A stretch of DNA of 63,604 bases, counting the filler, from Lophium mytilinum (Eukaryota): the NCBI GenBank assembly GCA_010093605.1. It is 11 parts of 5 records of this genome, joined end to end, with 100 filler letters (N's around TTAATTAATTAA, not from the genome) between each part and the next. Parts side by side here need not be neighbours in the genome. Positions count along the whole stretch, not along the records: positions 1 to 25,975 come from MU004192.1; 10 more parts are not named here. One strand, given 5' to 3'. Below are positions 1 to 47,190 of the stretch, in pieces. A model generated the notes under the pieces. That model made no database searches. It was not told the origin of the DNA and saw only the letters and a program-made list of their open reading frames with translations. Position numbers and translations under genes: made by a program. Within the stretch, counting starts at the first letter, position 1. Every line of letters starts with the position of its first letter.

Positions 1-1039
1 TAATTACTAATTATAGATAGAGATAGGTAGTAACTTATAATATAGATAACTAAATTAACTATAGGCTCCTTACTAATAATTAGTATCTTCTTCTTCTTAG
101 CTTAAATATATTAAACTATACTCCTAATCTTCTTTAGCTTCCCTAAATTAGCTAGTAGGTTAGTATACTATTTAGTAAGGGTACTTTCTAAGTCTATATA
201 ATCTATCTAGCCTGCATTTTTAATATCTTCTAGAGTAAAGGTTAGATTACTTATTAAGCTAAGCTCTTTCTATTGCGTCTTTAACTTAGCTAGCCTAGAA
301 ATTAATGTAAAAATCTAGGGCAGCCTCCTCTTACCTAAGCCCGTTAGGAAGGCGCCTAGGCTAAAGGAAGGCGGCGGCTTATTAATTACTACTCTATACC
401 TTAGCTATTCTTTATACTCTTCTTTAAGGTCTATATATCTCTCTCTAATAACTATATAGTACTTCTTAATAAAGGGTTTAAAGTAGTTAGATATACTAAC
501 TATTACCTGCTATATAATATAGAGCGGTATATCCCCTAAGAAAAGGCCGTCTAGGCTAAGGCTTATTAGTGTTCTATAGATGCTTATAGCTATAATTATA
601 TCTAATACTCTCTAGAGACGCCTAGATAATTTAGAATTATTCTATAGTTACCGCTCTTTCTCTATTTTTAAGGCGAGGTAGTAACCTCTAGCCCCTATAA
701 GGTTTCCTTAATTAATATACTAGAGGGTAGAGCCTTAATAAAGAATATTAAACTTATCCCCTTTATCTATATTCTCTTCCTCTAACTTCTTATCTAGAAA
801 AGTATTATCTAGGTTATCTTTAACATTAGTGTCTAAGTTAGTTAGGTCTACTATCTAAGTTAGCGTCTATAAACCTCTATATAGTATAACTATTAGATAT
901 AATAGAGTTTTAGGGCCGCGGAGAAAAGAAGTCCTACTATAGAATAAGCCTCTAGGGTAGCTATATAGATTAGTAGCCTTATTAAACCCTTCTAAGTTCT
1001 AGCCCTAATAAACCTAATTAAGTGTATAGTTAATATTTA

Positions 1040-3950
1040 CCTATTTATGTATAGTTAGGTGGAATGCATGCTAACACTATATAGACTTAATATAGCTAAA
1101 AGCTATAATATATAGAGATATATTATTAAATTCTAGGTAGAACTTATTAAAAAAAACAGCCCTATATATATATATAGGGGTTACTTTATTACTATATAAT
1201 AGGTTATAGAATATTATAAAGGTCTCTAGCGAGTTTAAATTCTTATTATATTTTTTATTAAAGGTCTCCGCGCTTATAATAATAAGGTAGGTTTTTACTC
1301 TTAGATTTAGCTTATACTATACCTAACTATTTATTTCTTAGTAGATAGGCCTAAGATTCTTCTAGTCTTTAGAGGTAAGGTTACCCTCTATAATGCTTCT
1401 ATATACACGCCGGATATAAAGTCTTTTACTAGAAACCTTAAAATTCTTATTCTTGCATTTAATATCTAGCTAGTATTTTACCTCCTTATAGGTCTAATTT
1501 AGTAGACTCTTCTTAGTAAGCTAAATAATGCAGCCTTTAATGCTACTAGAACGCGGAGTATTAGTGCTAGCCTCTCTAGCATAAGTAGTAAATGCTATTA
1601 ATATTTATAGAGTTTTTTCTATTCTAGGGGGGTTTATAAGAATTAGCCTACGCGCTCTACTAGTAAGACCTTAAATAATGCTATATATTCTAGCTACCTA
1701 GTATAGGGCCGCATGTATCTTTAGGTTAGTAGTTATTTCTAGTAGCTTAAAGGTTATATTACTAGAAAAATTCCTATATATTAGAGGTAAACTAAAAAAC
1801 TATAGTACCTTCTTAAATACTGCTATTAAGATATTCTTTATAGAGCTTAATATTAGGGCTATTATAGTAGTAATATTAATAGTATCTACCTCCTCTATAT
1901 TAGCTATAATTATCTTATTTATATCTATAGAGAGTTTAGTCTTACTAAGACTATATATATTAAATTTAAGTATAGCCGTAATATTAATACTACTAATTAC
2001 TATATTTTCTATAACTTAGATATTACTAGGGATAGTCTAGCTACTCTCTATAGTAACTGCAAGCGTATAGAGTTATTTTTAGGCGGTTAGGTACTAAGTA
2101 GTTCTAGGTCTAAGCGCTCTAAGCTACTATATAACCTTATTATAGATAATACTAGGCTAAATAGAATTATATATTAACTTAGTATATAGCTAGATAATAT
2201 TAAGTATCTATTAGATTAGTTACGCTTTCTTCTCTATTTATAGCTTCTATGCCTTCTTCTCTACTAGTAGTTTCTACTTTCTTTATTTCTCTTACTCTAC
2301 TATCTCTTCTAGCTATTTCTGCCTCTTTACTTTCTCTTTAGTCGCGGTCTTAGCTAGCTCTCTCTCCTTCTATTCTATCTACTTCTTAGCCTTCTCTACT
2401 ATTACTATATCTACTAGCTCTCTCTTCTTTATCTTTTTTTTCTTTATCTCTTTCTTCTTTTTTTCTTTCTCTACTTTTACTATTTCTACTAGCGCTTTCT
2501 CTACTAGCGCTTTCTCCGCTAGCTCTTTTTCTACTAACTCTTTCTTCTTCTTCTCTTTTTCTTTCTTTTCTCTCTCTGCTTTTACTATTTCTACTAGCTC
2601 TTTCTTTTTTTTTTCTTTCTCTTCTTTTACTATATCTACTAGCTATTTCTACTTCTTCTCTTTATTCTAGTCTATAGTAGAATTAACCTTATCTATATTA
2701 GCTATATATATATCTAGACTTATAATTAAGTTAATAATTATTTTATTTAGAGTATTAGCGGCGGTAGATTTAAATAGACTCTTAGCCGCAGTAGCCTTAG
2801 GCTTACTACAGCGGGGGCGTTTCTTAGCCGGGCAGATACTAGAGGGCGGGGACTTAAGAAAGTATAAACCTAGCTATATATTAGTTAGTAGTAATATTTA
2901 ATAATTAATAATAATTAATATATATCTAGTCTTAAGTTTAAATATTACCTTTCTAATATTAAGGCCCTTTACTATAAAACTAAGTACTATCTCTTTAGAT
3001 ATACTCTTTATTTCCTCTAATAGTATAGTTAGATAGAAGTTATTCTTTATTAACTTCTAGGTTCTATTAACTATAATAATATGCTCTAGAGGGTTAAAGT
3101 CTATAAAAGTTCTATTAATAGCTTCTAGAAACTTTATAAAGCTATAGTCTTCCGGCTCTAGGCCTTTACTACTAGACCTTATAAGATAGAGAGTAAAAAG
3201 GCGTCTAGTACTTTCCCGCTATAGTAGCTAGTATATTATAGCAAGGACCGCGTGCAATAGCTAGAGCTTAAATAGGGTATTTTAGGTAGTAATATCTAGG
3301 GATTTTATTAGAGAGCTAAGGCCTGCTAATACAACTAACTTTATAGATAAGGCTAACTTAGACTACTTCTACTTCTTATTACTTTTAATAATACTACTCT
3401 ATATCTTATATTTCTTATAGACTTTATACTAAATTAATATCTAATACACTTACTTCTACTTAGCTAATATAGAAGACTTTTTAAATATATAACTCTATAT
3501 ATCTATAAAAAGTATATATATTTTAAACTAAGTATTTAAGTAGGCATTATTCTTACTATAGTTATTTTAGCCTAGTTGTAAGAGATATTTTATCTATAGG
3601 TATGCTTTAGAGTTCTCTATTAGTATAAATAAGTTAGCTTCTATCTAGCGCTATACCTTAGAAGCTAGACCTAAGCTAGCTATAATATTTATTTAACTTA
3701 AGTAGCCTTTAGAGTTCTTAGTAAAATTAGATACCGCCTTACTCTATATAAATATATTATATAGCAGATTTACTAGAGGTATTATAGCCTTTCTCTAAGT
3801 AGGTCTAGAGTGTTAGCGGCTACTATAGGGAGGCTGGCAGCTATAGTAGTTATCTAGCTTATTTAGCTCTAAATTGCTATTATAGTCTACTTAACTAGAG
3901 TCTATACTTAATAACTATTTATCTAGATTAAACTCCTTATTATTTTAATT
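1040..3950 (-). pseudogene. RIPed cargo gene with K/E/A-rich coiled-coil repeat region, function unknown
   Basis: Minus strand of 2280-2660 de-RIPs to EKELAEKALAEKALAE..KAEKEKKKKE. One frame continues through about 1040-2000 with only RIP-type TAA/TAG stops. A fungal-type intron (GTAATA...CTAAC...TAG) lies at about 2871-2948 on the minus strand. Boundaries are approximate. Confidence 0.55.
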
Positions 3951-5599
3951 ATTAGGGAGGCGTTATTAGTAACTAGTGCATTAATCTAATTCTTTAGCTA
4001 TATTAGGTAAATAAGATAAAAAGTTAGGGTATAAGAAAGGTAGATAGAAGGGGGCGGGGTTAGTAGATAGAATAGTGTTATGCAGTAATGCGGGTAAGAG
4101 CGGGCAGAAGGCTAATAATATTAGATAAATAGTAATAGTAAGTAATAAGTAAGGTAGTTACTTACCTATAAAGTTATAATAGTAGACGCCACTTATAGTA
4201 TAATTAACCTTAAAATTACGCGTGTTAAAAAATAAGGCGACTATAGCAGAAGATATATAAATCCGCGCGCGCTAGTAATAAAAGTAGCTACTTTTAGTTA
4301 TACTTTTAAATAGGTATAATATCTATTAAAGAAGTACTTATAGAGTAGTACTAGAAATATAGTAAGTATAGGTAAGCCTAAAGCGTAGAGAAGGAAGTTA
4401 GTATATAAGGGAGGGAGAAGAAGAAGAAGAGAGAGAGGAAAGAGAGAGATAGAGGAGGAGGAGGATAAAGAAGGAAAGATAGGTAAGAATAGTAGATAAA
4501 AATTAGAATTAAAAGGCTAGATAGAAGATAAAGTTTAAAGTGGCGCATAATTAAGTATATAATTAGTAAATAGGCTATATTATAATATAATAGAAGTAAA
4601 GAGTTATATAGCTTAAAAAACTCTACTACTTAATAATTAGTAATAATTAGCCTCTACCTTAATATTTATCTATACCTATTAGCTTTTAGTAACACTTAAT
4701 AGATTAGTAATAACTTCTACCTAATATTACCTTCTACTTGCCTAGGTTAGTTAATATAGGGAGAAAGGCTAATTTCTATATATAGGTGCCCCCCCCTATT
4801 ATTTAAGTTAGTATTATAAGCTCTACTAAATTAGCGGCTAATAGATTAAGGTTCTTAAAATAGAAAGAGAAGTTAGCTATAGCTATCTAAAAAGGTACTA
4901 TACTGCTTATTATTATCTAAGCTACTACGCGCCTCTCTACCTCTAATAGTAGCTTATTATCTACTAAAGTTACACCCTATAAGCTAGTAGGTAGTAGCAC
5001 TAATTTATATATTTTCTTACTATCTACTCTTTTTATAAGTATTACTAATTTAGCTTATACTATAGAATAGCTTACTTACCTACTTTCTCCCTTACTAAAT
5101 AAGTACTCTTACCCTCTAGCCTTTTTACTAGCGCGCACACCGCCTCTATATAGAGAACGCCTACTTTAACCTACCTAGAAAGACTAGCATTACCTACCTA
5201 TATATTTATTATACTCCTTATTTACTTACTTACCCCTACTAGCGCTAGGCTAACTATAGTCTATATTTAACTAGCCTATATATCTCTCTCTCTTATAGCC
5301 CTCCGCTACTCTAGGCGGCGCTTTCTAGAGGCTCTACTTAGTAGTTTCTGCTCTCTCTCTATCTCTTATAGCTTGCGCTCTAATAACTAGGTTAGCGCGC
5401 TTTTTTTTGCGGATTTAGCCTTTCTAGAAGTAGTAGAATTATATAGTTATATCTTATAGGCCACGCCTCTAGAATATATATAAATTAGTAATACTTAGGT
5501 TTACCTATTATAGTATGCTATAAGGCTAACCCTTAAGTATAGCTTAAAATTAGTAGAGGCAGGTTAAAAGTAGATAAGAAAGATAATAGGGCAATACTT

Positions 5600-8500
5600 A
5601 GATATTTAGGGGACTAATTAACTACTATATAGTACTTATATTCTACTAGATAATTTAGCCATTAAATGCGCATTTAGATAAAAGCCTCTTAATATAACTA
5701 ATATCTTACTAGACGCAATAGTACTTAGTTCTAATCTAATTATTAGCCTAATATTATACTAGCCTTAACTCTAACCCTCTAGAAGGTAGCTGCCGCTATA
5801 GTAACTTACGCCTTCTATAATAATAGCTAATATACTACCGGCGCATATTAGACTAAAGCCCTAAACTCTTTTAATAATCTACTTACTATTAAATTACGGC
5901 CTTTTCTCTAACCCCGACTATTTTATTTAGAATATAAGCGTATCTACCTATACTAATACTAACTAACTATTTAAATATATTAGGCCTAATAGTAATATAT
6001 AGTCTAGAATAGTAAAGGCTAATATACTTTAAATAGAGACTAAGTAGTAAGTCTAGCTTATGCGCAGTAGTATCTAGACTTAATAGACTAATCTATATAT
6101 AGAGAGGTTACTACTAAGCTCTTCTTCTAACTCTACTCTAAGGGCGCTAACTAATTCTTTAATCTTCTATATAGTATACATAAAATCTTAGTTATAAGGG
6201 ATAAATTAAATAAACTATAGAAAGCGGAACTTAAGAAGATACTTACTACTTAAAAGACTATAATATAGTCTACTAATAGGTCTAAGTCTATAGTAACCTT
6301 TAAAGAGAAATATAGCAACCTTTAAAAGCGCTAGAAATATACTAAATACTAACTTAATTCTATAGTAAATATCCTAATCTTAAAAGGCTAAATAGGGGTA
6401 ATAGACGCCTACGCTCTTACTATTATTCTAATAACTATACCTAATGCCACCTATATAGTAAAGCTTACTAAGGCGCTATAAGACTAAAAGCTACTAAAGT
6501 AAGTTATAATTAAGTACTAATTTAGAATCTCTACTTAGATGCGCCCTAGCCTACCTACTAATATACTAGGTATATAATAGTACACTTACTCTTATTATTT
6601 TAATCTAGATACGCGTAAACTATAAAAGGTAGCCTTTATAAATAAGCCTAAGTACTGCTATAACTTTACTATTAAGGGCACCCTTAAGATTCTTAAGATT
6701 CTAGAAGAACACCTACCGCCCTTATTTAGAGGCTAGATAATTAGGTATAATACTAACGCGACTGCTAGTAAAGAGCTAGCGGAGGTCCCTATCTTCCTTA
6801 CTATTATTCTAACCTAACTAGCCACCCCTACTAAGCTAGTAGAACCCCGTAAGATGTTAATATAGAACGCTATTTACTACGTAAGGGTTTAAGATAAATA
6901 TAAGTCTTATATTAGTCTACCTTAGAATCTATATTTTAAATAGTATATACCTATTATCTTATATATAATCTATAGAGAATTAGCTAATAGAAGTCTAGCC
7001 TTATAANNNNNNNNNNNNNNNNNNNNNNNNNNNNNNNNNNNNNNNNNNNNNNNNNNNNNNNNNNNNNNNNNNNNNNNNNNNNNNNNNNNNNNNNNNNNNN
7101 NNNNNNNNNNNNNNNNNNNNNNNNNNNNNNNNNNNNNNNNNNNNNNNNNNNNNNNNNNNNNNNNNNNNNNNNNNNNNNNNNNNNNNNNNNNNNNNNNNNN
7201 NNNNNNNNNNNNNNNNATACTGGATTATATTCTATAGCTAAGCGGACTCTCTACTTAATACTATCTATACTAATAAGAAGTTTAAGGCTATAATAATAGA
7301 TAGTTTTACCTAGATATACCTAGTTATATCTATACTAGATACTCTAGAGAAGTTAGCATCTATAGAAGTATAAGCTAGAGAATTTTATAGCCTTAAGTAG
7401 CCCCTAAATCTACTATAAACTATACCCCCGCTTCTAGAGTTATAGAAGGCTAAACTTCTTACCTAAACTAACCTACTATTTATTAGAATTATAGAGTACC
7501 TACTAGTGCTCTAGCGCAACTACTATACCTACTCTTCTATTAATACTCTAAGTAAGTATATAGACCTAGATTATATTCTCTATTTTAAGGTTACTACTTC
7601 TAATATAGAGGAGTAAAGTCTAGATAATAAGTGCTAGCATGCTACTTAGATAGTATATAAAAATATTACCCGGCGTACTATACTAGTTAACTTATTATAG
7701 AAATAGGTTAATGCCTAGACTTATAAAGAGTTTTATAAGGTATTATATAACGCAGCTACTAAAATACTTATAGTATTACCTATAACGCTAAATATAGTAA
7801 ATATAATAAATAATATAGTAGAGGGCTTTATAGACGCAACTAAGCCCCTTTATATATATCTAGATTAGTACTAGGTTTTAATAATAAAGGATTATATACT
7901 GCTAGAGAAACTATATACTATTAATATTTTCTACTAAGGCCGCTCTAACTAGTTTCTATCCCCGTTTAAGTTAGTATAGGTTGCGGTTAAGTAAGTTTAT
8001 AACTTTAAGATAACTAGTAAACTAGAAGGGTATAGTAAATATAATATTAAGAATATTCTTAGGTACTATACTAAGGTACTAGATAAGTTTAAGGCTGGCT
8101 AGGCTAAGGCTAGCGATAGTATAGAGGGGGATAAATAGAATACTACTAAAGTCTACTATATTAATAGTCTAATCTTCTATATAGACTGCTATATAGCTAG
8201 AGGTTTTACTATATTTATCTAAGAACTAATTACTAATAGTACTATTAACTATTATAAAGTAAGTAGCTACCTAGTAGTTAGCTATTACTACTCCGCCTTT
8301 AGCTATAATAGAAGTAATAACTTCTACTCTAAGTATAATACCGGCGAAGATAATAATACTAACTAAGACGGTATCTATACGCTATACTTAGGCGATAATA
8401 AATTAATACGCTAGCAGCTAACTATCTTAGATTATATTTATAAGGCTATTCTAGACCTTAAGAACTGCGCTAGGCTCCTTAATAGAGATAGTAATAGTAG

Positions 8501-8950
8501 TAATAACTTAAACGCGCAAGATAATTATAGACTATAGAATCTGCGTAAAGATAAGCTTAGCTAGAGAATATAAAACTATATAGCTAAAGTATTAGCTAAA
8601 ATATAGTAAGTAGTAGAAGGCTACTATAATTAGAAATAATTAATAATAATTAAAAATAATTAGATATCCTGCAGGCGGCCCGGGTAGACTATAGTATAAA
8701 AGTTGCTGCTAGCACTAGTTATAGGCGCCGGTAACTTAGATAGAAGGTAGCATCCCCGCTACTAATTTAGAAGTATTAGTAATCTAGAAGTCTTCTATAC
8801 CTATATACTTAATTTAAAATACTAAGTTATTATTATATTTACTATAGGTTATATATATAAATACTAGATAGTAATATATATAGCCTATAAGCTAATATCT
8901 TCCTAGAGCTAAATATCTACTAGCCTAATTTCTAGCACTATTAATAAGGG
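5600..8950 (+). pseudogene. RIPed long cargo ORF (about 1000 codons), product not recognised
   Basis: One + frame from about 5985 to 8950 is interrupted only by TAA/TAG codons revertible to Q/W/R/E (gap bridged using copy B). An intron-like 'ctaactaac...attag' lies at about 5958-5983. The region is repeated at about 23620-25602 and 28128-29531. Confidence 0.5.
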
Positions 8951-9995
8951 CTTAACAATTCTTTAGCTTCCCTGTTAACCCGGTATAAAATAGGGCCTAG
9001 AGTTTCGCCGGGGTGTTATTATAAAAGTAGCTAAAGAACTTAACCTACTTCTAATAGCGCGGTATAGACTATTAAAGAAAGGCTTAAGCACTCTTATAAT
9101 CTATAAGAAGATAGTTCTCTACTTTTACTACTTACTAGTTCTTATAAGTTATCTACTCTCTATCTACCTTATTCTTATTAAGCGTAGTTATTACTAATAT
9201 GTATACCGCTAATTCTACCGCGTATAAGAGGCTTAAGTAGCTAAATTAGTAATATTATAAAACTCTCTACCTAACTAGCGCCTTCTAGCTATTATCTAAT
9301 TTTGCGCCGGCCGAGAGAGACGCAGAGTTTAACCTAGGCTACTTAATGCGCATTTAATATTACTATCTTACAGCCGTTCTATAACTAGTACTTACTCTAG
9401 CGGCCGTCTTTTTAATAACGCTAGCACCCTTAGTAGATATCTATTAACTCTATTCTACTAGACTAGTAATATATCGCCGCCTAGTACTTACCTTATAGAA
9501 GAGAGTAACGCGCTTAAACTTAGTATCTTCTTCTATATTACCTAGATAGTACTTACCTAGAGTTAAGAGTTCTTTACTATAGCTAGTAACTATAGTAGGA
9601 AGTTAGATACTAGAAATTAGTAAGAGGTAATACTTACTTTTAATATACGCCGTGCTATTAAAACTAGAGAAACTAGATATAACTACTAGTATACGCTTAA
9701 AACTATACCTACTATAAAGGTTTATACTAGCTATAAAAAATATAGAAATAATAGAAATAATTATATATAGGCTTTAGAGTTATAGTTTAAGAAAGTAAGC
9801 TATAGTTTTTAATGCGTAGATACGTTAAGGTTCCAGGCTAATAGAATAGCCCGCCCTCTATTAGAACGCGTTATATGCTATTAAAGAATAATAAGTACTA
9901 TATACTAGCCTATAATCTAATATAATCTATAATAATTACTTGCAATCTATAAGTTTCTATATAGGGCTAACTAAATTTAACTAGAAATAGGGTAT

Positions 9996-12900
9996 ATACC
10001 TTCTACTAAATATAGATACTACTATAAGTTATTTTAAATACTTAGCGCCCTAAATAAATATATACCGTGCTGTAAAAAGCTTCTTAAAATACTATAGCGG
10101 GTCCCGCTTACTAATACTAGAACTACTAGATCTATAATCTAGTCTTATATACTCTATATTATTTAGATAATAGACGGGATATTATTTAGAATGCCTAGAT
10201 TACTACTAGTAAGTCTACCCCTACTAGCTAACCCCTATAATAAGATAGAGTATAAGATAAATAGAATAGAGCTATATATCTCTAGTAAACTAAAAGAGTA
10301 CTAGAGTCTGCCTTCTATAAATAGAGGCCCTATAAGCTTAATATATAATAACCTACTAGAGGCTACTAAATTCTATATTCTATACTAATAAGGCTAACTA
10401 ATAATATTATCCATATTATTACTATAAGAGAAAGTATATCCCTCTACTAAATTAGGCATGCCCGCAGGGGCGTCTATTAGACAGGCTAATACTAGATAGT
10501 AGATGTAAGTATTATTAGGGACTACTATCCCCCCCGCCTATAAAGGCGGCATTAGAGCTTACTAACTAGTTACTCTATTATAGGGACTAATCCCCCTTCC
10601 ATCTATTTTAATTAGCGTTTAACTATACTTTTATATTATAGCTTTAGTAGATTAGCTGCACTAAGAATAATATTAACCTACTATTTAATAATATCTACCT
10701 TAAGAGTATATTCTCTAACTCCCTTATATTTATATTAGGCAATTTATAGAATAGTAAACTAGAGAAAATTAGATATAGCATTAGTAATACTAACTGCATA
10801 GTAGAGATACTGCATTTCCTAAGTAAAAAATAAAGCTTAAGTAGAGAGTAGTATCTAGTATACTACTTTAATATAATAGCAGCTATATTATTTCTAATTA
10901 GACACTGCTCTTTCTATAATTACCTTATATTTATACTAGTTTAAGTCTATAATATAGAAGGCTAGCAGGTATATACTAAGTTATATATATTAGACTAGTA
11001 GTAGTAGACTTAGTTAAAGCTTCCAGCGGGGGCTATAGTAATACCTATCTTACTCTCTATAGATAAGATATAGCTTACCTAATATTATAGTAATAAGAGC
11101 GTATAGCTAGTCTATCTAACTATTAGCAATCTAGATAGAACTACGCGGCACTTAAATATATTACCTAGCACCCTACTACTAGGCTTTATACTAAGTATAG
11201 TAGATAAAGAAGACTACTTAAAGTATTAGCTATACTATAGCTCTTTAGGCTATATTCTTAGGTATTAGTAAAATTCTTACTAATACTAAGCGGTTTTCTA
11301 ATATAAAATAAGCTATTATAGAATATACTACTAATAGAATTATACTAGAATATAGGGATAGTAAGAATTAAAGGTGCTATCTAGTATTATACGGGATTAT
11401 AGCTAATTATAAAGAATAGAGCCTACTTATAAATATTAAATTTAGAAAATACTATACTATATACTAGGTACTATTATATTAACACAAAGACCTAGAGACT
11501 AAATACACTATAAGATCTTACTACTTAACTATTATTTAGATTAAATAGCAACGTAATAATAAAGAGTATTTAAAACTTCTACTAAATAAAGCGCTATATA
11601 ATATAGAGGCTATAGAGCTTAATATAGAGTTATATATATATTCTATAAATAACTTTACCTAGAAATACCCCTATACTAATATCTACTAGATAATAATAAT
11701 AGATATTCTATACTAACTATTTATAGGCGTTATTTATAACCTTATTAAATAGGTCTAGCTACTAGTAGTAGAGGTCTACACCCCAGCAATTAAAAGAAAA
11801 GATGCCCGTGTCCTAATAGAAAATAAGAGCAGCTTAACCTAGCTAGATAAGTAATTTAAGAACGTGCCGCCTTTCCCGGGTCTATCTATATTTAATAAGA
11901 AGAATTTTAGTAAACTCTTATAGTATACTAGCTCTAAATAAAAGTCTATAGCCCGCTAGCTTATAGTAGTAGTAGCACTGCTGCTAGAAGTAAAGGCGCT
12001 AAACGCGCTCTAGTTTATCTATATAATGCTTAATTTTACTATTCTAGTATAGTATAAAATGCATAATAAGGCTATACTAAAGTATATAGAGCTAGTAATA
12101 GCTTAAATTAATATATATAAGTTAGAATTTAGAACATTTAGACCTAGGAATAAGAATAGAAACTATACCTTCTACTATCTAAAATTTTATATTATGCAGC
12201 ACTACGTTAATTTTATATAGAAATTTAGCGCTATTAATAGCTATAACACCAGCTTAAATAGTAAAGTAAAATACTAACACCTAGTTAAATTACAGTATTA
12301 GTTAATAAACTATAAGAACTTTCTACTCTAGATTTACTAATTAAACTAGAGACTTATAAATAACTAGGCTATAAATAATATACTAAACTACTAATATTAC
12401 TATCCTTAACCGGCAGTAATAAGAGATATGCTAATGTAATAGATAATAGTATTAGAAAGTATTAATATCTTAAACTTTAAATAGCCTAGATATAATAATT
12501 TCTATAAAGGCTAAATAGTATACTATTTAAAAGTAAGTATTAAGTATATAGCTAATATAAGCTGGAAGCTAAACTTTATAGCCGCCGCCGCTATATTTAT
12601 TTAAGAAGAGAGGCGTAAGATCTAAGGCTAATATACTAAGCCTAGCAGCCTAGATATATTAGACCCTAATCTATTCTAGGTTAGCTACCTCTAGCTTAAG
12701 TTCTATACTAGTATTTTATGTTAAAAGCAATTAGGTACTAGTAAGAACCTAGAAAGCCTTATAAAAGAAAATCTATAGTGTAACTCTAAGTAGTAGAACT
12801 AAGAATAGTAACGCAACTATCTATAGGTATAAGAGTATAGCTTAGACTATACTAAAAATAGAAAGACGCGCATTAGTATTACTAATGGGAGGTTAGTAGG

Positions 12901-13456
12901 GTAGCTATAATTTATAGTAACTATTATAGACCCTATTCTAAAGGGTAAAGACACCCTATAGGTAGTATACTCTAGAGTTTTTATTTACCTTCTAGCGCTA
13001 ATTAATAATAGGAAGCTATATTATATCTATAGCCTAGTAGAGGTAGCTTTTTAGGCTTCTAATAATAGCTACTACTAATAAAAGCTAGAAGTATATTAAT
13101 TCTATCTACTACTATAAGTTCTCTAAAGTGCATATATTATACTAGCTACCTCTAGCCTAGACTCTACCTGTTTTTTTATTAATAACTATATTAACTAGAA
13201 TTAATATAATATACTCTATATAGAAGACTAGAAGATAGAAGTATAAGAGGTAATAAGGTAGTACTAGCTTAGCGGTTGCGCTAAAGAGATTAAAGCTGCC
13301 CTAAGAGTTAAAGATGCAGCGGAGTTTTTAGTAAAGCGCGCAAGAGTAAGAGTACTTACTAACGCCTCTCTTCTATAACTAAGCTAGTAAATACTAAGAA
13401 GCAGTATAGTAAAGAGGGGCTATAGTACTAGTAAGTAATAGCGTAGGTAGAAATAA
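9996..13456 (+). pseudogene. Plavaka-family transposase (Pfam Plavaka-like), RIP-inactivated
   Basis: De-RIPed motifs occur in the expected order: N-terminal C-x2-C...H-x3-C finger (about 10011-10073); PFHPF (about 10594); RVYTE..SDWWW.TQ.KLPAGATVIPILLS.DKTQLT (about 10966-11079); WPVYLTIGNL; CYPVL.GI.ADYEEQ..L..K..K.C..C (about 11375-11470); DILHQLF.G (about 11702); LDKRFKNVPPFPGL (11843-11884); PKFH.MQHY..FI..FG..DGYDT (about 12179-12250); FFINNYIDW.QYN.LY (about 13172-13220). An intron GTAAGT..CTAAC..TAG at 10505-10583 restores the frame. A second probable intron lies near 11264-11312. Confidence 0.9.
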
Positions 13457-13779
13457 GGCCGCAAGGAAAGATATTCTTAATTTTTCCCTACTATTAAGAG
13501 ATAATTAAGTATTATTTAGCTTTATTAACCTCTAAGGCTAATTAACGCAAGATAATAACTGTGTACTTTTCTATATAATTTCTATAAAACTAGGTAATAC
13601 TAGTATACCCCGCTAGCGCTGCCTTACTTTACTTTTTAAAATTGCATGTTGCTATCTTTACCTGTTTCCCTTTACTAATAACGGCCGCCTAATTAAATTT
13701 ACCGGCTACTTAAACTTACTACCCTCTAATTACTTTCTTTTCTTAATACTTTATAGTAATTAACCCTAAATAGCGCCTA

Positions 13780-14901
13780 TAGTAAGTATATTATCTATAC
13801 TAGAGGTTTTAGGCTATAGTTAAGTTATAAACTGCTTTCTAGTAGGTTAACACCGTAAGATAGAAATATAAGGTGTAGACCTTAATATACTTAAACTATA
13901 CTTACCTATTCTAGTCTAGTTAAACGCGGATAAACCTCTCTCTAAACCGGGTTAGAACTATAAGATACCCTCTGCCTTTACTAGAGCGTATACGTCTAAA
14001 GAGGGGGATATCTTCTACCTCTATAACTTTAAGTATATTAGTAATAATACTCTATATTTTAGCTCTATTAAACTAACACCTGCAAGCTATATAATGTTCT
14101 AGCTAATAATACTAAGCTAATAGAATAAGCGTTTTATTAATTAAAGCTGCACCTATCTATATATAGTTAGAACGTAATTCTCTTATAGCTCTATGCTATA
14201 AGATATAATACTAAGATAAATTATCTAGAAGAGTTAGCAAGTATTAGCCTACTTAAAGAGGTAAGTAAGTACCTTCTCTTTTATAGATACCTACTAATAT
14301 AATATCTCTTTTCTAGCTATTTAGGTAATACTATTAAGACTCTATTATCTATAATACTTATATACACGCGTTACCGGGTAAGATACTAATCTTTACCCTT
14401 CTAAAATTCTTCTATATATATAGTTGCGTCTACTATATAGACCTAAATACTAATAAATACTTTAGCCTATAACTATTATCTCCTGCTATAATATATATAG
14501 ATTACAGATCTACTAGCCTTGTAGATAAATGCACCGGTCTAGACCTACTCTAACTAAATGCAGCTAACTAGTTAATAATACTTTAAAACCTCTTAAGCAA
14601 CATTTATATATAATATATTATTAACTATAAATAATAGTTAGACTATAACCTACTAAAGCCTTTTAATCTAGAGGACTTTTAGTACTTAGTTAATCTATAT
14701 ATAATAGAACTTACTAACTATAGAACTAATTTAGAGATAAGTAAAGCGTTTAAATTAGAATTTAAGCCTAATGCAGATAATATAGAGAAGAAGGATATAG
14801 AGATAGAGGCAGGCGAGGTAGATAATACTAAAGTAGAGATAGAGGTAGATAATATAGAGATAGAAAATAGCGGGTAGAAGGCTTCTTTTAAGCGTACTTA
14901 A
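13780..14901 (+). pseudogene. RIPed spliced cargo gene with acidic C-terminus, unknown product
   Basis: Intron signals are present (GTAAGT..CTAAT..CTAG at about 14262-14316). There is an E/D-rich tail at about 14770-14870. Partly repeated at about 31060-31276. Confidence 0.4.
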
Positions 14902-15249
14902 GTTATATAGTAGGTAGTATATATAGTTAGTCTAGACCCCTAAATATAGTAGTTTATCCTATAATAGCGTCTATATTTAAGTATAAGGTATAATAGGGTT
15001 TTAAAAATATTAATACATAAGTTAATTACTAGCAATTTAATTTTTCTTACTACCCATACACTTAACCCTTCTCTTTTATAGATTATTAATTATAATTAGA
15101 GATTATATATATCTCCCTTTTATAATTAGAGTTAGCCCGCTACTTATATTATCTTACCCGTTTTAATTCTATTATACCCCTCCTTATTAAGCAGGGCTAC
15201 TACTTATTTAAACACCGCGCAGGTATATATAAGTTAGTTGCACTAGTTA

Positions 15250-17400
15250 AGATTTACGCCCTATAAACTATTTAAAGTAATACCTAGAGTAGCTAATATT
15301 AGAGGCTACATTCCTAATAATATTAAGAGGTATTCTATTAGTAGACCTACTACCCCGTCTAATAGATCTAAATTCTTCCTCTAATTTAAAAGTAGTATAT
15401 ATTATTCTTTACCTTTAGGCCCTAACACTAGAAGACCGCCCTTTATAGAGCCTAGTATTACCTGCAGCTTCTACTCTATTACCTCTAACGCTTAATATAA
15501 TTAATTATAATTAGAGATTATTACCCTCTTATAATAGTATAAAGTCTACCTTAACTATCTAACTTCTTAGGCTACGCAGCATTATCTATTACCTAAGCTA
15601 AGGCTATAAACCTACTTTACCCGGCAGGCGCGTATTATATTATAGCTAGTAAAGATCTTTACCTCCTCTACTAATAACTAAGTAGGCCGGTAAGTAAAAC
15701 TTAACTCTAACTTTACTCTTATATATAAGCCTTACTATACTCTTCCTTACTATATTACTAATAGCTTAATAGCCTAAGTTACTATAACCCTACTACTATA
15801 ATAGAGTAGATAGTAGTCTACTAGAATAGACTAGTAAACTTTACTATTACTATCTATATTAATAGCTATATAGACTACTTTAAAGCGCTATATACTATAT
15901 ATAGTAGAGATAACCTAGAGAAAGCTACTATATTTCCCTAGCGCCCTTAAAAAGATATTATAGACTTTAAGGTTAAATATAATATACTTATCTAGTTTAT
16001 ATATAAGTATTTACTATACCTAGTTCTAAGTTAAGGATTAGGTAATATAAAGGGCGGCCAGTCTAATAAGCTAGAGATAAAAACTATACTAGAGGTAGTA
16101 AAGAAGGCCTATAGAGAGGGCTCTAAGAGCTTCTTTATTAAGAATTAGGCCTATATAAATCTATCTACTACTTTCCTACCTATATCTACTAACTATTTAC
16201 TAGTATAAGAAGCTTATAGTACCCGCGGTTCTAGATAAAAGCGGCTTTAAATACTCTAGAGGTAAAGAAGGTATAGTAGTATAGCTATATAAGGGCTATA
16301 GACTCTAAGTTAATATATCTATAAATACGCTTAATATTACTAGTAGTATAGCACTAATTATATATATAAGCTATACTTTAATACCTACCCTACTAAGTAT
16401 ATTCTAATCTATACTTATTAATATAGATATTAGAAAGACCTTCTACTACTACTAAGATCTAAAATATACGCTACTGCTACATATAAGAAGATTATATATT
16501 TACTAACCTATATTTAGTCCTCTTACTAATACGTGCCTACTTTATTAACTCTAAAGATAGTTCTATATTTAAAGTTAGCCTTATAAACCTAATATTATTC
16601 TACTTAAATTATGCCGCCTTAGGCAAGGCTATTAGCTGCCATGCAGCTATATCTAGAGAGAAAGAAGAGAAAGATAACCGCGACCTTTAACTAGAAGTCT
16701 AAATTTATACTAAGTATATTCTTATAGTTAAGCTGCAGATCTTAATATTCTAGAAGACTAGAAGCATATAAGCAGTGCTATTATTACTAGAGACCTATAT
16801 CTTTATAGATAAGCTATAGACCTTAATACGCTAGAAGACTAGAGGTATATAAGAGGTACTATTATTGCCGGAGACCTTAGTAATAGCTAAGGCTAAAGAG
16901 AAGAACTTAGGAATAGTAGTATTAGAATAAGAGACTTAAGGTGCAACCTTAAAGAATAAATATAAAGCGCTATTTAATAAACTAGAGCCTATAGACCTTA
17001 TAGAAAATAAAGATAAATTAGATATATACTACTTTAATAATAGAAAGAACTAGGTAGAAAAAGTTAACTAAAATAAAGAAAATGCTATAGAGAAGGTATT
17101 ATCTATAGAAGACCTAGATAGCTTAAAGGCGGCGGAGGCGGCCTTATATAAGGCTAAAATAGGCCTAATTATAGCTTAGACTAGCGTTAAGAAGGCCTTA
17201 GAAATTATGCATACTCGCATAGTAAGGGATAAAGAGAAGAATACTAACCCTACTATCTTCTACTCCCCTAATATTATCTAAGAGACGCCTAAAAGTAGAC
17301 GTAGAAGGTGTATACACTTAATATAGTAAGTACCTCCTTAAGAAATTACTAATTTTCTAGCGCACGCATAGATAGAAAGTAGCCTTAAATAGAACTATAT
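15250..17400 (+). pseudogene. RIPed spliced cargo gene(s) with 81-bp internal repeat, unknown product
   Basis: Intron-like segments (for example ...ctaactatttactag at about 16190-16203), an 81-bp (27-codon) tandem duplication at about 16729-16876, and an E/K-rich stretch at about 16950-17250. Repeated at 31377-33000 and 57698-58560. Confidence 0.4.
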
Positions 17401-17899
17401 AAGTCTACCTATATATACTTTCTATATACCTTTTATACCCTTACACCGCTACTAAGTTAACTTTTAATAGATGCGCAGTATATATATATACCTTATATCT
17501 TAAAGCCTACCCCCGCCCTAAGCTTTAACTTAGAAACTACTTATCTACCTACTTCTAATATAAACCCTTTAAACTGCACGCGCTTAAAAACACTACTAGT
17601 CTTATAATACCTATTTAGAGATATTCTATAGTTATAATACCTAGCGCATTAAGCTATAATATAAGGGATTAAACCTAAGGCTAATTAAGAATAACTATTA
17701 GCAATAATAGCGCACTACTATAAAGACGCACTTATGCAAGATTCTAATAGTGCACTTAAGAGAAAAGTATATAGTAACTATTAGTTAAAATATATACGCC
17801 TAAGCCTTAAATTTCTAGCGCCTGCCTATATATATAATAGGACTATTCTCCTCTATTCTATAGGTATAAAAGCCTGCCCCGCATCTCTTTCTCTACGCT

Positions 17900-19100
17900 A
17901 TAGAGTAGTAGGAGGTAGTAAGAGTTAAAAAGGTAGAAGAGTTATAGTAGAGATTAACTTAAGGCTAACTATTTAGAATATAGCAGGTATTAAAATTGCG
18001 TATACTAATAAATTATAGTAGGGGCTAAAGCTAGTAGAAACTTATCTAAGAAGCTAGAATATAGAGAATAAAAGGTAGTGCATAGGTATAGCTTACTAAT
18101 AGTATCTACTATAATAGAAAGCTAATAGCGCACTAATATTTAGGTTAGTAGTTAGACTAGTATAGTTCTATAGAGCTGTATTAAATAAAGGTAATATACT
18201 CTAGCATTACTAGCTTATATTACCTACTAAGCTTCTCTATCCCTTCTACTCTACTCTATAAGCTTTTTTATCTACTAGGTTTCTCTATTTCTCCCGCTCT
18301 ACTCTATAGAATTTTTTTTCTACTAAGTTTCTCTATCTCTCCTACTCTACTCTATATAATAGCGCCTTAGTTCTAGTATAATCTTTTATATATATAGCTC
18401 TTAATCTTTCTAACTACTATACGCAACTATATATCTATATTCTCTACTAGCTTTTAACTCTACTCTAACTACTACTTCTCTAGCCCTACTTTTCTTAGAA
18501 AATAAGCGGGCGGATAGAATATATACTCTATCGCCGGCGCTAGATATACTTTAATCTAGTATTATAGGGACAACCTAGCCCTTATATATACTAGTAATAG
18601 ATAACTATCTACTATATAATAACGCGGTAGAGAGAGGGAAAATAAAGCTACCCCTACTCTAATATCTCTAACTCTCCTTATAGTACTGCGTAAAATTATC
18701 TAGAATTATATAAGATTATCTATAATTATTATAGCGTGCCCCCTATATTCTTATATTCTAAAAGAGACTCTAGCCTATTTCTTTAAGTATATTTTAGGTC
18801 CTGTAACTGCCCTACTAGATAGAGAGTATATATTTTTATTGCCTTTTAGCGCATAAGTATACTATAGGCTAGGTTATAAAATAATAGTATTCTAACTTCT
18901 AAGGTTAGAAGTATAATAGAAGAGACTATAAATAGAGGAGCAGCAACCTAAAATATAGATAGAAGAAGTAAAGCGTACTAATATAGAGGGAAATAAGAGA
19001 TATAGAAGAAGTAAATAGAAAGAAGGGGCTATAGAGGCGGTAGTATTATAGCTATAATACTAGAGGCTATTCTATAATATAGATATAAAAGACTACCGCC
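17900..19100 (-). pseudogene. Probable RIPed cargo gene with 48-bp tandem repeats
   Basis: Purine-rich coding-like minus strand. A 48-bp unit occurs three times at about 18224-18356 but twice in the copy at about 33876-33960 (in-frame difference). Confidence 0.3.
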
Positions 19101-19780
19101 GGAGCTTATATTAGTAGTAGAATAGTTATATACTTTTTATTATTTATAGATAGTTATATACTGCGGCCTAACTCTTAAATAATAGGTCTTAGTAGTAATA
19201 TAGTAAGAGTCTACCTAAGAATATATTAAGTATTCTAATTATAATTTATAAGCTAGACCTAGCGCTAAATTATAGAATAGATAGATTATATCTTTTCTAC
19301 CTATCCTCTATATATCTATTAAATCTACTTTTTAACTACTATAGCTCTAACTTTACCGTACTAACTATTTATAGGATAAAGATTAGACGTTCTAGCCTAA
19401 GTACTTACTATCCCTACTTACTTCCACCCCCGCCTTGCACTACTATAGAGAGGGAAGAGCGGTAAATAGAATTATTTTATAGTAGAATGTAGGCGGCATT
19501 ATATATAGGGTATATATATATTAGCTCTAGCACTACTAAAGCTAATTAGGTAAAAGATACTATAGAACTAAATTATTAATAGTTTAAAATAATAGATAAT
19601 AATTAAGTGTTATTAGGCTATATAGTATATAGGTAAACTACTACTAGTCTATATAGTAATATTACCTGCGCTAGTAGTTTATATAGATGTTGCGTAATTT
19701 ACGCGGTTTACTAGAAGTTTACGCTGTTCGCTGCTAAGTACTAATAGCTCTAACTTTTGCAGTTTTAGGTTTTTCTAATA

Positions 19781-22700
19781 TTACTAAAACTATATATATT
19801 AAATTTAAGTATAGCTATAATATTAATACTACTAATTACTATATCCCCCGCAACTTAGATATTACTAGAAATAGTTTAGCTACTCTCTATAGTAACTATA
19901 AGTATATAGAGTTATTTTTAGATAGTTAGATACTAAGTAGTTCTAGGCTTAAGCGTCCTAAGCTACTATATAACCTTATTATAGATAATACTAGGCTAAA
20001 TAGAATTATATATTAACTTAGTATATAGCTAGATAATATTAAGTATCTATTAAATTAGTTATACTTTCTTTTTTATTTATAGCTTTTATACCTTCTTCTC
20101 TACTAGTAGTTTCTACTTTCTTTATTTCTTTTACTCTACTATCTCTTCTAGCTATTTCTATCTTTTTACTTTCTCTTTAGTTATAGTCTTAGCTAGCTTT
20201 CTCTTCTTCTATTCTATCTACTTCTTAGCCTTTTCCGCTATTACTATATCTACTAGCTCTCTCTTCTTTATCTTTTTTTTCTTTATCTCTTTCTTCTTTT
20301 TTTCTTTCTCTACTTTTACTATTTCTACTAGCGCTTTCTCTACTAGCGCTTTCTCCGCTAGCTCTTTTTCTACTAACTCTTTCTTCTTCTTCTCTTTTTC
20401 TTTCTTTTCTCTCTCTGCTTTTACTATTTCTACTAGCTCTTTCTTTTTTTTTTCTTTCTCTTCTTTTACTATATCTACTAGCTATTTCTACTTCTTCTCT
20501 TTATTCTAGTCTATAGTAGAATTAACCTTATCTATATTAGCTATATATATATCTAGACTTATAATTAAGTTAATAATTATTTTATTTAGAGTATTAGCGG
20601 CGGTAGATTTAAATAGACTCTTAGCCGCAGTAGCCTTAGGCTTACTACAGCGGGGGCGTTTCTTAGCCGGGCAGATACTAGAGGGCGGGGACTTAAGAAA
20701 GTATAAACCTAGCTATATATTAGTTAGTAGTAATATTTAATAATTAATAATAATTAATATATATCTAGTCTTAAGTTTAAATATTACCTTTCTAATATTA
20801 AGGCCCTTTACTATAAAACTAAGTACTATCTCTTTAGATATACTCTTTATTTCCTCTAATAGTATAGTTAGATAGAAGTTATTCTTTATTAACTTCTAGG
20901 TTCTATTAACTATAATAATATGCTCTAGAGGGTTAAAGTCTATAAAAGTTCTATTAATAGCTTCTAGAAACTTTATAAAGCTATAGTCTTCCGGCTCTAG
21001 GCCTTTACTACTAGACCTTATAAGATAGAGAGTAAAAAGGCGTCTAGTACTTTCCCGCTATAGTAGCTAGTATATTATAGCAAGGACCGCGTGCAATAGC
21101 TAGAGCTTAAATAGGGTATTTTAGGTAGTAATATCTAGGGATTTTATTAGAGAGCTAAGGCCTGCTAATACAACTAACTTTATAGATAAGGCTAACTTAG
21201 ACTACTTCTACTTCTTATTACTTTTAATAATACTACTCTATATCTTATATTTCTTATAGACTTTATACTAAATTAATATCTAATACACTTACTTCTACTT
21301 AGCTAATATAGAAGACTTTTTAAATATATAACTCTATATATCTATAAAAAGTATATATATTTTAAACTAAGTATCTAAGTAGATATTATTCTTACTATAG
21401 TTATTTTAGCCTAGTTATAAGAGATATTTTACCTATAGATATACTTTAAAGTTCTCTATTAGTATAAATAAGTTAGCTTTTATCTAGTACTATACTTTAG
21501 AAGCTAGACCTAAGCTAGCTATAATATTTATTTAACTTAAGTAGCCTTTAGAGTTCTTAGTAAAATTAGATACTATCTTACTTTATATAGATATATTGCG
21601 TAGTAGGTCTACTAGAGGTATTATAGCCTTTCCCTAAGTAGGTCTAGAGTATTAGTAGCTACTATAGAGAGGCTAGCAGCTATAGTAGTTATCTAGCTTA
21701 TCTAGCTTTAAATTACTATTATAGTCTACTTAACTAGAGTCTATACTTAATAACTATTTATCTAGGTTAAACTTCTTATTATTTTAATTATTAGGGAGGC
21801 GTTATTAGTAACTAGTGCGTTAACCTAATTCTTTAGCTATATTAGGTAAATAAGATAAAAAGTTAGAATATAAGAAAGGTAGATAGAAGGGGGTAGAGTT
21901 AGTAGATAGAATAGCGTTATATAGTAATGCAGGTAAGAGCGGGCGGAAGGCTAATAATATTAGATAAATAGTAATAGTAAGTAATAAGTAAGATAGTTAC
22001 TTACCTATAAAGTTATAATAGTAGACGCCACTTATAGTATAATTAACCTTAAAATTACGCGTGTTAAAAAATAAGGCGACTATAGCAGAAGATATATAAA
22101 TCCGCGCGCGCTAGTAATAAAAGTAGCTACTTTTAGTTATACTTTTAAATAGGTATAATATCTATTAAAGAAGTACTTATAGAGTAGTACTAGAAATATA
22201 GTAAGTATAGGTAAGCCTAAAGCGTAGAGAAGGAAGTTAGTATATAAGGGAGGGAGAAGAAGAAGAAGAGAGAGAGGAAAGAGAGAGATAGAGGAGGAGG
22301 AGGATAAAGAAGGAAAGATAGGTAAGAATAGTAGATAAAAATTAGAATTAAAAGGCTAGATAGAAGATAAAGTTTAAAGTGGCGCATAATTAAGTATATA
22401 ATTAGTAAATAGGCTATATTATAATATAATAGAAGTAAAGAGTTATATAGCTTAAAAAACTCTACTACTTAATAATTAGTAATAATTAGCCTCTACCTTA
22501 ATATTTATCTATACCTATTAGCTTTTAGTAACACTTAATAGATTAGTANNNNNNNNNNTAGGGGCCCTTCTTAGGTTGTATTTCTAAGGTGCTGCAAATT
22601 TAATTACATTATATCCTTAGTAAAGAGTTATATAGCTTAAAAAACTCTACTATTTAATAATTAGTAATAATTAGCCTCTACCTTAATATTTATCTATACC

Positions 22701-25602: not shown

Positions 25603-25975
25603 ATACAAATATAAAGAAAGGTAGAAGAAGGCATAGGAGTCCTTTTATAAAATAGAACAGCGCGGGCCACTAACGCCGGCCCTTAATACTAAATAGAGTA
25701 AATAACAGGAGACTATATATAAAGGGCTTATAAAGGTTAAAAGTACTATTTTTATAAACCTATAAATAGAGTATATAGGGCTTAATAGATACCTGCACTA
25801 TATATAGGTGCTAGGCTACCTAATACTAGCCTGCCCCTGCAGGCACGGCCTCTAATTACTACGCTATGTAGTAATAAACTGCAAGAGGCATATAGAGGGT
25901 AGAGGTAAACTATTTAAGAAAGTAAAGACTTAGATGTATAAGGAAATATATAAAAGTAAAAAGGGACCTAAGGTA

Positions 25976-34589: not shown

Positions 34590-34750
34590 NNNNNNNNNNN
34601 NNNNNNNNNNNNNNNNNNNNNNNNNNNNNNNNNTTAATTAATTAANNNNNNNNNNNNNNNNNNNNNNNNNNNNNNNNNNNNNNNNNNNNTAACTTCTTTA
34701 ATCTTTTATTATTCTTCTTTAGGTTCTCTATAGCGCTTTTAAGAGCCTAC

Positions 34751-46988: not shown

Positions 46989-47190
46989 TATAATAAATCT
47001 AGCTCTATATATATTATATACCCTTAGCTATATTATATAAGCCTATGCGCTAGTATAGTTTTATACCTCTAGCCTATATTTAGTCTACGCCGCGTAGAAC
47101 CTCTACTTCTACGCGACTTTATCTTTATAAATACACTCTATTTCTTACTTAATACTATACTCTATACTTTACCTTTTATAGTCTATAATA
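46989..47190 (+). repeat. G1 3' LTR
   Basis: Follows the PPT, matches 34751-34952, and is followed by the CCTAC TSD. Confidence 0.92.

Follow-up and report, generated by a model that had tools for sequence, protein, structure and literature searches.

What kind of element makes up the repeated block at the start of this 63,604-nt stretch of Lophium mytilinum DNA (the window, by which we mean the whole stretch analysed), and did it move genes as cargo? A preliminary description had proposed a giant multi-copy Plavaka transposon of more than 19.8 kb, beginning at position 1, with about five intron-containing cargo genes and possibly belonging to an undescribed class. We detected the relic of a Plavaka transposase and, 5' of it, a sharp boundary compatible with a PlavakaB terminus, both in DNA that is heavily altered by repeat-induced point mutation (RIP). 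The block is probably best explained as a mosaic of high-copy repeats that includes RIP-killed copies of a PlavakaB-like transposon family, for which a left boundary, but no right end or full length, could be established.

The transposase relic and the left end

Pfam was searched at E<=0.1 with the six read-through frames of 1-20000, in which stops were read as X. The Plavaka domain PF18759 matched the plus-strand frame from 10201 (residues 209-359, nt ~10825-11277; profile 35-198 of 325) with an E value of 7.6e-10 and 38.9 bits, above the gathering cutoff of 26.3, and the match resumed in the next frame (nt ~11309-11737; profile 193-318, E 0.034). With 10498-11295 as query, a HMMER search of the full library (1.84 billion representatives) returned 243 proteins at E<=1e-3, including 63 at <=1e-10 (best 1.7e-23), with identities to the relic of 21-47%. 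When 150 homologs were compared with the window by tblastn, all 146 high-scoring segment pairs fell within 10500-11700, and the six relatives tested all carried PF18759 themselves (1e-42 to 1e-75). The Plavaka transposase remnant of the preliminary description is thus confirmed, both by the above-cutoff domain match and by the 243 library proteins. Alignment by phmmer of 16 proteins of at least 600 aa to the read-through frames extended the relic in both directions, and its total extent was extrapolated from the homolog coordinates (Table 1).

The relic changes frame at 11263-11332, corresponding to profile position about 194. The closest relatives, P0002 and P0003, stop at about this profile position, and the domain of P0011 is split there. 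Splice-like signals are present as well (GT at 11262, CTAAT at 11280, AG at 11320 and 11336). Since relatives end or split at the same profile position as these signals, a short conserved intron is the most economical reading, and the frame change is probably such an intron, the exact borders of which cannot be fixed.

All of the 63.6 kb is RIP-saturated, and the pattern is that of classical CpA-directed RIP, which suggests an ascomycete. The window is AT-rich throughout (GC 22-31% in 2-kb windows), and every 4-kb block has a TpA/ApT ratio of 1.70-1.96 and a (CpA+TpG)/(ApC+GpT) ratio of 0.07-0.22. The longest stop-to-stop frame is 151 aa, and nine frames reach at least 90 aa. Differences between copies are nearly all transitions (92/93, 175/184, 92/93, 110/114, 123/123, 138/140, 93/95 and 19/19 in the pairs compared); together with the extreme RIP indices, this bears out the earlier statement that the genome is RIP-competent. 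As CpA depletion is near saturation and most RIP changes are common to the copies, two or three copies cannot restore the sequence that preceded RIP, and a deRIP consensus was rejected.

The window is a chain of 11 joined parts, R1 to R11 (Table 1). Ten of its N blocks are 100-nt six-frame-stop linkers of the form N44-TTAATTAATTAA-N44, starting at 25976 (to 26075), 28028, 29532, 31277, 34590, 36448, 57598, 59219, 60628 and 62243, and the total number of Ns is 1,259. Adjacency across the linkers is not genomic adjacency, and of the supposed block only 1-25975 is contiguous.

Repeats were located by self-BLASTN and a repeat finder over the whole window. A unit, copy A, begins at 1937 in R1 and recurs in direct orientation as copy B from 19776, 17,839 nt downstream. 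Up to 1936/19775 the two copies show no relationship, whereas from 1937/19776 onward their identity is about 95%, giving a sharp boundary with two different left flanks. PlavakaB consensus sequences have 5' ends of the type CATCA[G/C]..AAAA[C/T], with an A-run after the G/C and most often reading CATCAGCAAAAC, while PlavakaA consensus sequences start TGTCGG (both from the supplement of PMC12730594). CpA-to-TpA conversion of a CATCAC-CAAAAC-type end yields TATTACTAAAAC, which is the 12-mer found in B at 19779-19790; the corresponding 12-mer in A, at 1940-1951, is TCTTACTAAGAC. The bases preceding the left end are TAG in A and TAA in B. A PlavakaA-type start (TGT, or a RIP-converted TAT-CGG-like form) is absent at this boundary, which reads TAGTCTTAC / TAATATTAC. 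The boundary looks like a RIP-converted PlavakaB-type terminus, and this fit of a motif at an independently defined position is the best evidence for assigning the candidate terminus to that type.

The best inverted partner of the left end was found about 1 kb inside the unit, so that arms of about 95 nt bound a ~1.0-kb sub-unit in both A and B (Table 1). In local, RIP-tolerant alignment the arms scored 79 (A) and 75.5 (B), compared with a mean of 37.7 (standard deviation 9.0, maximum 70.5) for 280 random pairs 1 kb apart, the test being post hoc. The inner arm is also the best non-self match of the left arm in the whole window (71, next 62.5). A scan-wide null drawn from R7 was unusable, R7 holding real repeats. 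The sub-unit is possibly a non-autonomous Plavaka-type element, or else a subterminal inverted repeat.

Copies, copy number and the right side of the unit

Besides B, four of the joined parts (R3, R4, R5 and R8) correspond to segments of the unit (Table 1). As the preliminary description had stated, self-BLASTN places segment 7256-7735 in the window three times (from 7256 in A, 25123 in B and 28128 in R3) and segment 16517-18037 likewise three times (from 16517 in A, 32169 in R5 and 57698 in R8; 90-96% identity). Over 480 nt, B and R3 are separated by 19 differences (96% identity), all of them transitions, and are therefore distinct genomic copies. The long collinear stretches present in two copies amount to only 5.8 kb (A/B) and 3.3 kb (A/R5). 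At the BLASTN stringency used, 8660-12352, 13993-15723 and 18986-19775 of A had no counterpart elsewhere in the window, and relaxed BLASTN (word 9) returned nothing beyond AT-rich background (57-65% identity).

The right part of A joins the left end of B at 19775/19776, a junction that sits within one gap-free stretch, 7217-22548. B diverges abruptly from A at 25602/25603 (7735/7736 in A) and R3 continues across the same point; the break in B is specific to that copy and is not an element end. The tail of B that follows, 25603-25975, is GC-richer, unique in the window and contains AACGCCGG. We also noted that 131 nt of A (4579-4709) align on both sides of the 10-N gap of B at 22549-22558 (region 22418-22733; offsets 17839 and 18024). 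The double match most likely reflects two contigs whose overlap, about 130-185 nt, was left unmerged, and not a true duplication.

Sequencing data gave a view of the unit beyond the window. Two runs of the source sample (X1 and X2) contained 44-46% of sampled words of 9000-14000, and four air-metagenome runs contained 7-12%. Mapping of short contigs onto 1-20000 at a likeness of at least 88% placed 4,901 contigs from X1 and 4,603 from X2, with changes that were almost all transitions; the X1 contigs comprised 1336 at 99% identity or above, 1702 at 95-99%, 1606 at 90-95% and 257 below 90%. Summed word depth in X1, which is not to be equated with copy number, was 2741-5396 across all 30 bins of 1-20000, including 4259-4927 in 1-1936. 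The entire 1-20000, flank 1-1936 included, is clearly high-copy repeat DNA. Copies related to the unit also occur in airborne material, as judged from 156 and 125 mapped contigs in the air-metagenome runs X3 and X4. These were mostly 90-95% identical to the unit, and fractions of 0.32 and 0.23 of them, respectively, continued into unrelated sequence.

Among the contig joints listed were 1974-to-16268 (X1 and X2), 8882-to-13085 (X1 only) and 19780-to-9429 (X1 and X2, with 12 filler letters between). The short side of the first is 22 nt. Local similarity, at 4/30 and 7/30 on its two sides, does not explain this joint, and it offers a weak lead that an internally deleted derivative may have kept the left end. 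The filler of the 19780-to-9429 joint opens with the same eight letters as the AACGCCGG tract in the tail of B, perhaps by coincidence or perhaps because the two share a short motif. Neither an empty-site joint nor a cluster of loose ends at 1937 was among the rows listed for the X1-X4 mapping, in which stretches without listed joints prove nothing.

A search for the right end gave three candidates, at 7886, 17845 and 19197, all at chance level. The weak inverted match to the left end at 17685-17845 scored 70 against 56.5 +/- 3.3 in shuffles, and 1 of 60 real-segment controls scored as high (maximum 74). Left- or right-type 12-mers with at most two transitions number 12 in the window, compared with 3.98 in shuffles (maximum 9), and include 7875-7886 and 19186-19197; a 60-nt comparison anchored at 19197 scored 49.5 against a mean of 34.5 (standard deviation 7.2). 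In a transition-proof purine/pyrimidine alphabet, inverted repeats in R1 reached 43 nt with 17 hits, compared with block-shuffle maxima of 40-45 nt and 10-17 hits; RIP would hide short terminal inverted repeats (TIRs). No candidate right end has just after it a 2-3-mer that matches the bases before the left end, as expected of a target-site duplication (TSD). The copy boundaries, which had been expected to define the termini and TSD, thus yielded a sharp left end at 1937/1940, and no right terminus, long TIR or TSD. As the A/B repeat begins at 1937 and no right end was established, an element of more than 19.8 kb starting at position 1 does not follow from these data.

Coding-like relics beside the transposase

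The question of cargo was addressed with the same Pfam frames. The three plus frames of 10201-20000 contained PF18759 as the one family, and no family was found in the three minus frames of that interval or in the six frames of 1-10500. Across the six frames of 1-20000, at a sensitivity lowered by RIP, there was no reverse transcriptase, integrase, DUF3435, other recombinase, KDZ or TET/JBP match; the absence of DUF3435 agrees with what had been noted before. Among stop-free pieces of at least 33 aa in 1-19800, 0 of 124 reached E<0.01 in Pfam, such fragments being insensitive even within the transposase.

Two long stretches with few stops nevertheless resemble coding relics, termed U and X (Table 1). 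Stop density is a weak detector, since a stop-density map missed the transposase, whose frames carry 49/434 and 61/676 stops (background 0.114). The stop pattern of relic U recurs in R3 (34/60/94). In a codon-position chi-squared test, U gave p=2.8e-7 and X gave p=7.5e-9, whereas part 2 of the transposase, the positive control, gave p=4e-5 and four control stretches on both strands gave 0.07-0.95; U thus matches the transposase control in strength of signal. Periodicity also appears in the TC-rich tract 2215-3302, where it is confounded by a tandem repeat whose 15-nt unit is a multiple of 3, and 16351-17400 is periodic but confounded by the 81-nt repeat. Neither U nor X has a Pfam family, and U had no phmmer match among the 16 long Plavaka proteins. 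A word-based homolog search for U and X gave no matches; the same search missed the confirmed transposase relic, so its negatives carry no weight. Beside the transposase there are at most two or three coding-like relics without a named family; of these, X falls outside the repeated unit. With 0 of 124 pieces matched and no other Pfam family, the earlier count of about five intron-containing cargo genes could not be verified.

Other parts of the window hold coding-like frames and repeats of their own. The most coding-like frame of the window is on the minus strand of R6 (34691-36445), with as few as 5 stops in 250 codons, a periodicity p of about 1e-17 and no Pfam family. Further periodic frames were seen in R2 (26101-27600), R7 (38.7-41.4, 42.6-45.5 and 47.0-49.4 kb) and R9 (59.4-60.6 kb); targeted Pfam searches on the most coding-like frames of R2, R6, R7 and R9 gave a match in 0 of 6 cases. 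R7 contains inverted arms at 36548-38311 and 55049-56809 (1.76 kb, 85% identity, 16.7 kb apart), a further inverted pair at 46287-47212 and 54137-55054 (87-91%) and internal repeats of 63% identity. The R7 repeats are another, older repeat family, in which Plavaka proteins have no match. At 43854-43897, also in R7, an 18-nt unit CTAACCCTAACTCTAAAC is present in 2.4 copies and resembles degenerate telomere-like CCCTAA repeats.

Table 1. Positions of the joined parts, repeat copies, transposase relic, candidate ends and coding-like relics in the window
Feature	Position	Strand	Remarks
Part R1	1-25975		inner N runs 7007-7216 and 22549-22558
Part R2	26076-28027		
Part R3	28128-29531	+	equals unit 7256-8659, 93.4%
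Part R4	29632-31276	+	equals unit 12353-13992, 93.0%; covers C-terminal end of transposase relic
Part R5	31377-34589	+	equals unit 15724-18985, 90.9%
Part R6	34690-36447		
Part R7	36548-57597		
Part R8	57698-59218	+	equals unit 16517-18037, 90.8% to A, 93.8% to R5
Part R9	59319-60627		
Part R10	60728-62242		
Part R11	62343-63604		
N run	7007-7216		210 N in copy A, either a gap in the scaffold or a mask; equivalent in copy B only 53 nt
Copy B	19776-25602	+	equals unit 1937-7735
A/B repeat	1937-4709 = 19776-22548		96.6% identity
A/B repeat	4579-7006 = 22603-25030		92.4% identity
A/B repeat	7217-7735 = 25084-25602		93.3% identity
Left flank X of copy A	1-1936		unrelated to 17840-19775; not in A/B repeat, yet high-copy
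Relic X	3-1934	-	33 stops in 644 codons (background 0.114); runs off start of R1; outside repeated unit
Candidate PlavakaB-type left terminus	1937-1951	+	12-mers of A and B given in text
Sub-unit, ~1.0 kb	1937-2961		inverted arms 1937-2030 and 2869-2961; encloses TC-rich tandem repeat
Same sub-unit, copy B			arms 19776-19875 and 20708-20800
TC-rich tandem repeat	2215-2670		periods 15/30/45/90/105 nt; minus strand reads K/E-rich; holds longest stop-free frames (151 aa)
TC-rich tandem repeat, copy B	20054-20509		
Relic U	7218-9899	+	directly upstream of transposase, same strand, other frame; 63 stops in 894 codons vs 106 and 146 in other plus frames
Transposase gene relic	~9960-13360	+	~3.4 kb, extrapolated; aligned parts 10516-11262 and 11333-13228
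PF18759 Plavaka domain	10825-11737	+	two frames, 10825-11277 and 11309-11737
P0011 (1178 aa), residues 183-429	10516-11262	+	phmmer 3e-21
P0011, residues 477-822	11333-12391	+	phmmer 3.4e-43
P0069, residues 387-713	11312-12349	+	phmmer 9.5e-30
P0082, residues 567-1105	11636-13228	+	phmmer 1.8e-20
P0082, residues 995-1105	30175-30507		weak echo in R4, 0.011
81-nt tandem repeat, 2 copies	16715-16877		also R5 32367-32529 and R8 57896-58055
Weak inverted match to left end	17685-17845	+	ends ...GACTA; candidate right end or subterminal repeat, not significant
12-mer GTCTTAGTAGTA	19186-19197	+	reverse complement of left-end type, 2 transitions; candidate right terminus, not significant

Competing explanations and known systems

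Under the reading we favor, the ancestral family would have been a Plavaka (CMC/CACTA-like, DDE) cut-and-paste transposon, which presumably multiplied to tens of copies by transposase-mediated excision and insertion. RIP afterwards filled every copy with C-to-T and G-to-A changes and stops, leaving nothing mobile now. Along its plus strand, copy A would consist of the left end at 1937/1940, the arm-bounded sub-unit, relic U, which is presumably part of the same element, and the transposase relic with its one probable short intron. B is a second, partial copy 17.8 kb downstream, and the other copies are represented by short separate stretches. The length from the left end to the transposase end, at least 11.4 kb and up to about 16-17 kb, would fit the range given in the published Plavaka work covered.

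Several observations weigh against this reading. In R1 we established no right terminus, no TIR of at least 30 nt bracketing the transposase and no TSD, and A, R5 and R8 are homologous on both sides of 17845. Plavaka TIRs would bracket the transposase; the only inverted partner of the left end above background is the one about 1 kb inside, so this terminus is possibly that of a small non-autonomous element and not of the one bearing the transposase. The left end of A (TCTTAC..) is off the expected RIP product by one transversion. The Plavaka domain occurs once in the window, R4 repeating only the C-terminal tail of the transposase, and its linkage to the flanking repeated segments is visible in copy A only. 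The earlier claim of a block copied at least three times in the window stands for its segments, which are triplicate and multi-copy, but the count rests on separate stretches joined together. Finally, the atlas neighbours of P0011 are PF18759 (+DUF6830) clusters, mostly basidiomycete; this leaning and the low identity to relatives would leave the subfamily placement loose.

The explanations considered overlap, and our confidence in one does not exclude another. It is doubtful that the unit is a single PlavakaB-type element of ~16-17.3 kb and fixed architecture (1940 to 17845 or 19197), amplified whole and carrying, besides the transposase, two or more accessory genes (relic U, the K/E-repeat region and perhaps one at 16.35-17.4 kb). 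Summed contig depth is roughly even across such a unit, but it is equally high in 1-1936 outside it, so even depth delimits nothing. No other transposable element (TE) protein family lies inside, although no accessory gene was matched to a family either, and B, R3, R4 and R5, which are locally collinear with A and follow its order along the window, include a copy that departs from A at 7735. Its left end looks to be of PlavakaB type, yet the presence of the inner arm at 2869-2961 suggests that this terminus belongs to a 1-kb unit. The right-end-like matches at 17845 and 19197 are weak and within chance, with A, R5 and R8 sharing sequence past 17845. The 1974-to-16268 joint could represent an internally deleted derivative keeping the left end, but on a short side of only 22 nt; in the published work covered, Plavaka elements do reach 21-24 kb. 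A variant that we regard as quite improbable is a composite "macro" Plavaka of ~17 kb (~1940 to ~19197), whose left terminus would come from a non-autonomous PlavakaB-type unit of 1 kb and whose right terminus would lie far off. It would have moved the transposase and at least two genes (relic U and K/E-repeat) as a block, to tens of copies, in a strongly RIP-active ascomycete before RIP silenced it.

Explanations without an intact mobile unit were also weighed. Segmental or tandem duplication of a RIP-degraded repeat mosaic, by unequal crossing-over in an AT-rich region and with the Plavaka relic as a passenger among old unrelated repeats, would account for A and B as direct repeats 17,839 nt apart in R1, for the homology of A, R5 and R8 across every candidate right end (to 18037 or 18985), for a window that is high-copy and RIP-saturated including its flanks, and for the rearrangement joint 19780-to-9429 with its 12 nt of filler in X1 and X2. 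We consider it unlikely, as a random breakpoint would not be expected to leave a sharp left boundary that coincides with a Plavaka-type terminal motif and has two different left flanks, 1-1936 is not homologous to 17840-19775, so that there is no simple tandem array, and the thousands of contigs with 88-99% identity indicate tens of dispersed copies and not one duplication. It is very unlikely that the A-B tandem layout arose in assembly or scaffolding, through collapse of a high-copy repeat, in which case the local arrangement would tell nothing about an element. R1 does contain inner N runs (7007-7216, 22549-22558), the 131-nt stretch 4579-4709 of A on both sides of the 10-N gap in B has the form of an unmerged overlap, neighbouring parts are repeat contigs of 1.3-3.2 kb, and high-copy repeats 90-96% alike are difficult for short-read assemblers. 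However, the 19775/19776 junction is inside the gap-free 7217-22548, and A and B differ by 3-8%, which makes them distinct copies and not one collapsed copy.

If the broad reading of RIP-killed PlavakaB-like copies is true, the locus records an extinct Plavaka family in a RIP-active fungus and adds an example of Plavaka at high copy number in a strong-RIP genome. Such relics tend to stay unclassified or misclassified, as in the Tuber LTR/Pao (long terminal repeat) case (PMC12581995), so the record is useful for repeat annotation. If many copies shared both termini around a ~17-kb block with genes of no known family, a DDE transposon would have moved multi-gene cargo in Pezizomycotina alongside Starships. 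The composite macro-element, if true, would be a DDE analogue of cargo-carrying giant elements, in a setting where strong RIP should hinder such bursts.

The features of RIP-degraded AT-rich blocks in filamentous ascomycetes, such as AT-isochores and centromere-like TE graveyards, are general knowledge, and the window shares them: GC of 22-31%, TpA/ApT of 1.7-1.96, near loss of CpA/TpG, no open frame above 151 aa and a fragmented assembly, with nothing notable that differs. Large size, a repeated multi-gene block and an ascomycete-like RIP-affected genome recall Starships. Starships are low-copy, whereas copy number here is high, and in place of a DUF3435 tyrosine-recombinase captain, absent from the six frames of 1-20000 at E<=0.1, there is a DDE-type Plavaka transposase. 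The En/Spm (CACTA) elements of plants are large, have a second long ORF on the transposase strand, carry subterminal repeats in both orientations and give rise to internally deleted non-autonomous derivatives; relic U, the inner inverted arm and the 1974-to-16268 joint are the parallels here. In contrast to En/Spm, the transposase here is PF18759 and not one of the CMC Pfam families Transposase_21/23/24, and the termini do not read CACTA as they stand.

Autonomous Plavaka elements are defined by pfam18759 (PMC8290104) and sit with EnSpm/CACTA (PMC12730594) in the CMCT clade of DDE transposons, which unites EnSpm/CACTA-, Mirage-, Chapaev- and Transib-like elements. PlavakaA has TGT..ACA termini and 2-bp TSDs, and PlavakaB has CATCA..TGATG termini and 2-3-bp TSDs; families carrying TET/JBP are also described (PMC12730594). 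Consensus lengths in the supplement of that paper run from about 6 kb to 24.4 kb (Plavaka-11_AB, 9,895 nt; PlavakaB-1_GyCo, 24,396 nt), and the ascomycete family PlavakaB-1_TuBo is listed there. Plavaka consensus sequences with 2-bp TSDs and a CATAC TIR motif are reported from a Tuber genome, where they were first misfiled as LTR/Pao (PMC12581995). The copies described here differ in being all RIP-saturated and dead, with no TET/JBP domain detected, neither a right terminus nor a 2-3-bp TSD found and identities to relatives of only 21-47%. The published families, as far as these sources cover them, are from Agaricomycotina and Tuber and not from a strong-RIP lineage, and among titles and abstracts of the Plavaka literature, with full texts covered in part, a strongly RIP-active ascomycete was not found. 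The likeness lies in the PF18759 transposase, in a left end compatible with CATCA.. after RIP, in a plausible size of 11-17 kb against the published ~6-24 kb, in coding sequence additional to the transposase, which the families with TET also have, and in the ascomycete precedent of Tuber. The suggestion of a possibly undescribed class gives way here, because complete Plavaka elements with TIRs and TSDs, of ~6-24.4 kb, with a TET/JBP gene in some and with Tuber families among them, are already published (PMC12730594, PMC12581995). A giant fixed cargo element is not shown by these data, and a Plavaka of 11-17 kb that carries additional coding sequence would fall within a kind that is already known.

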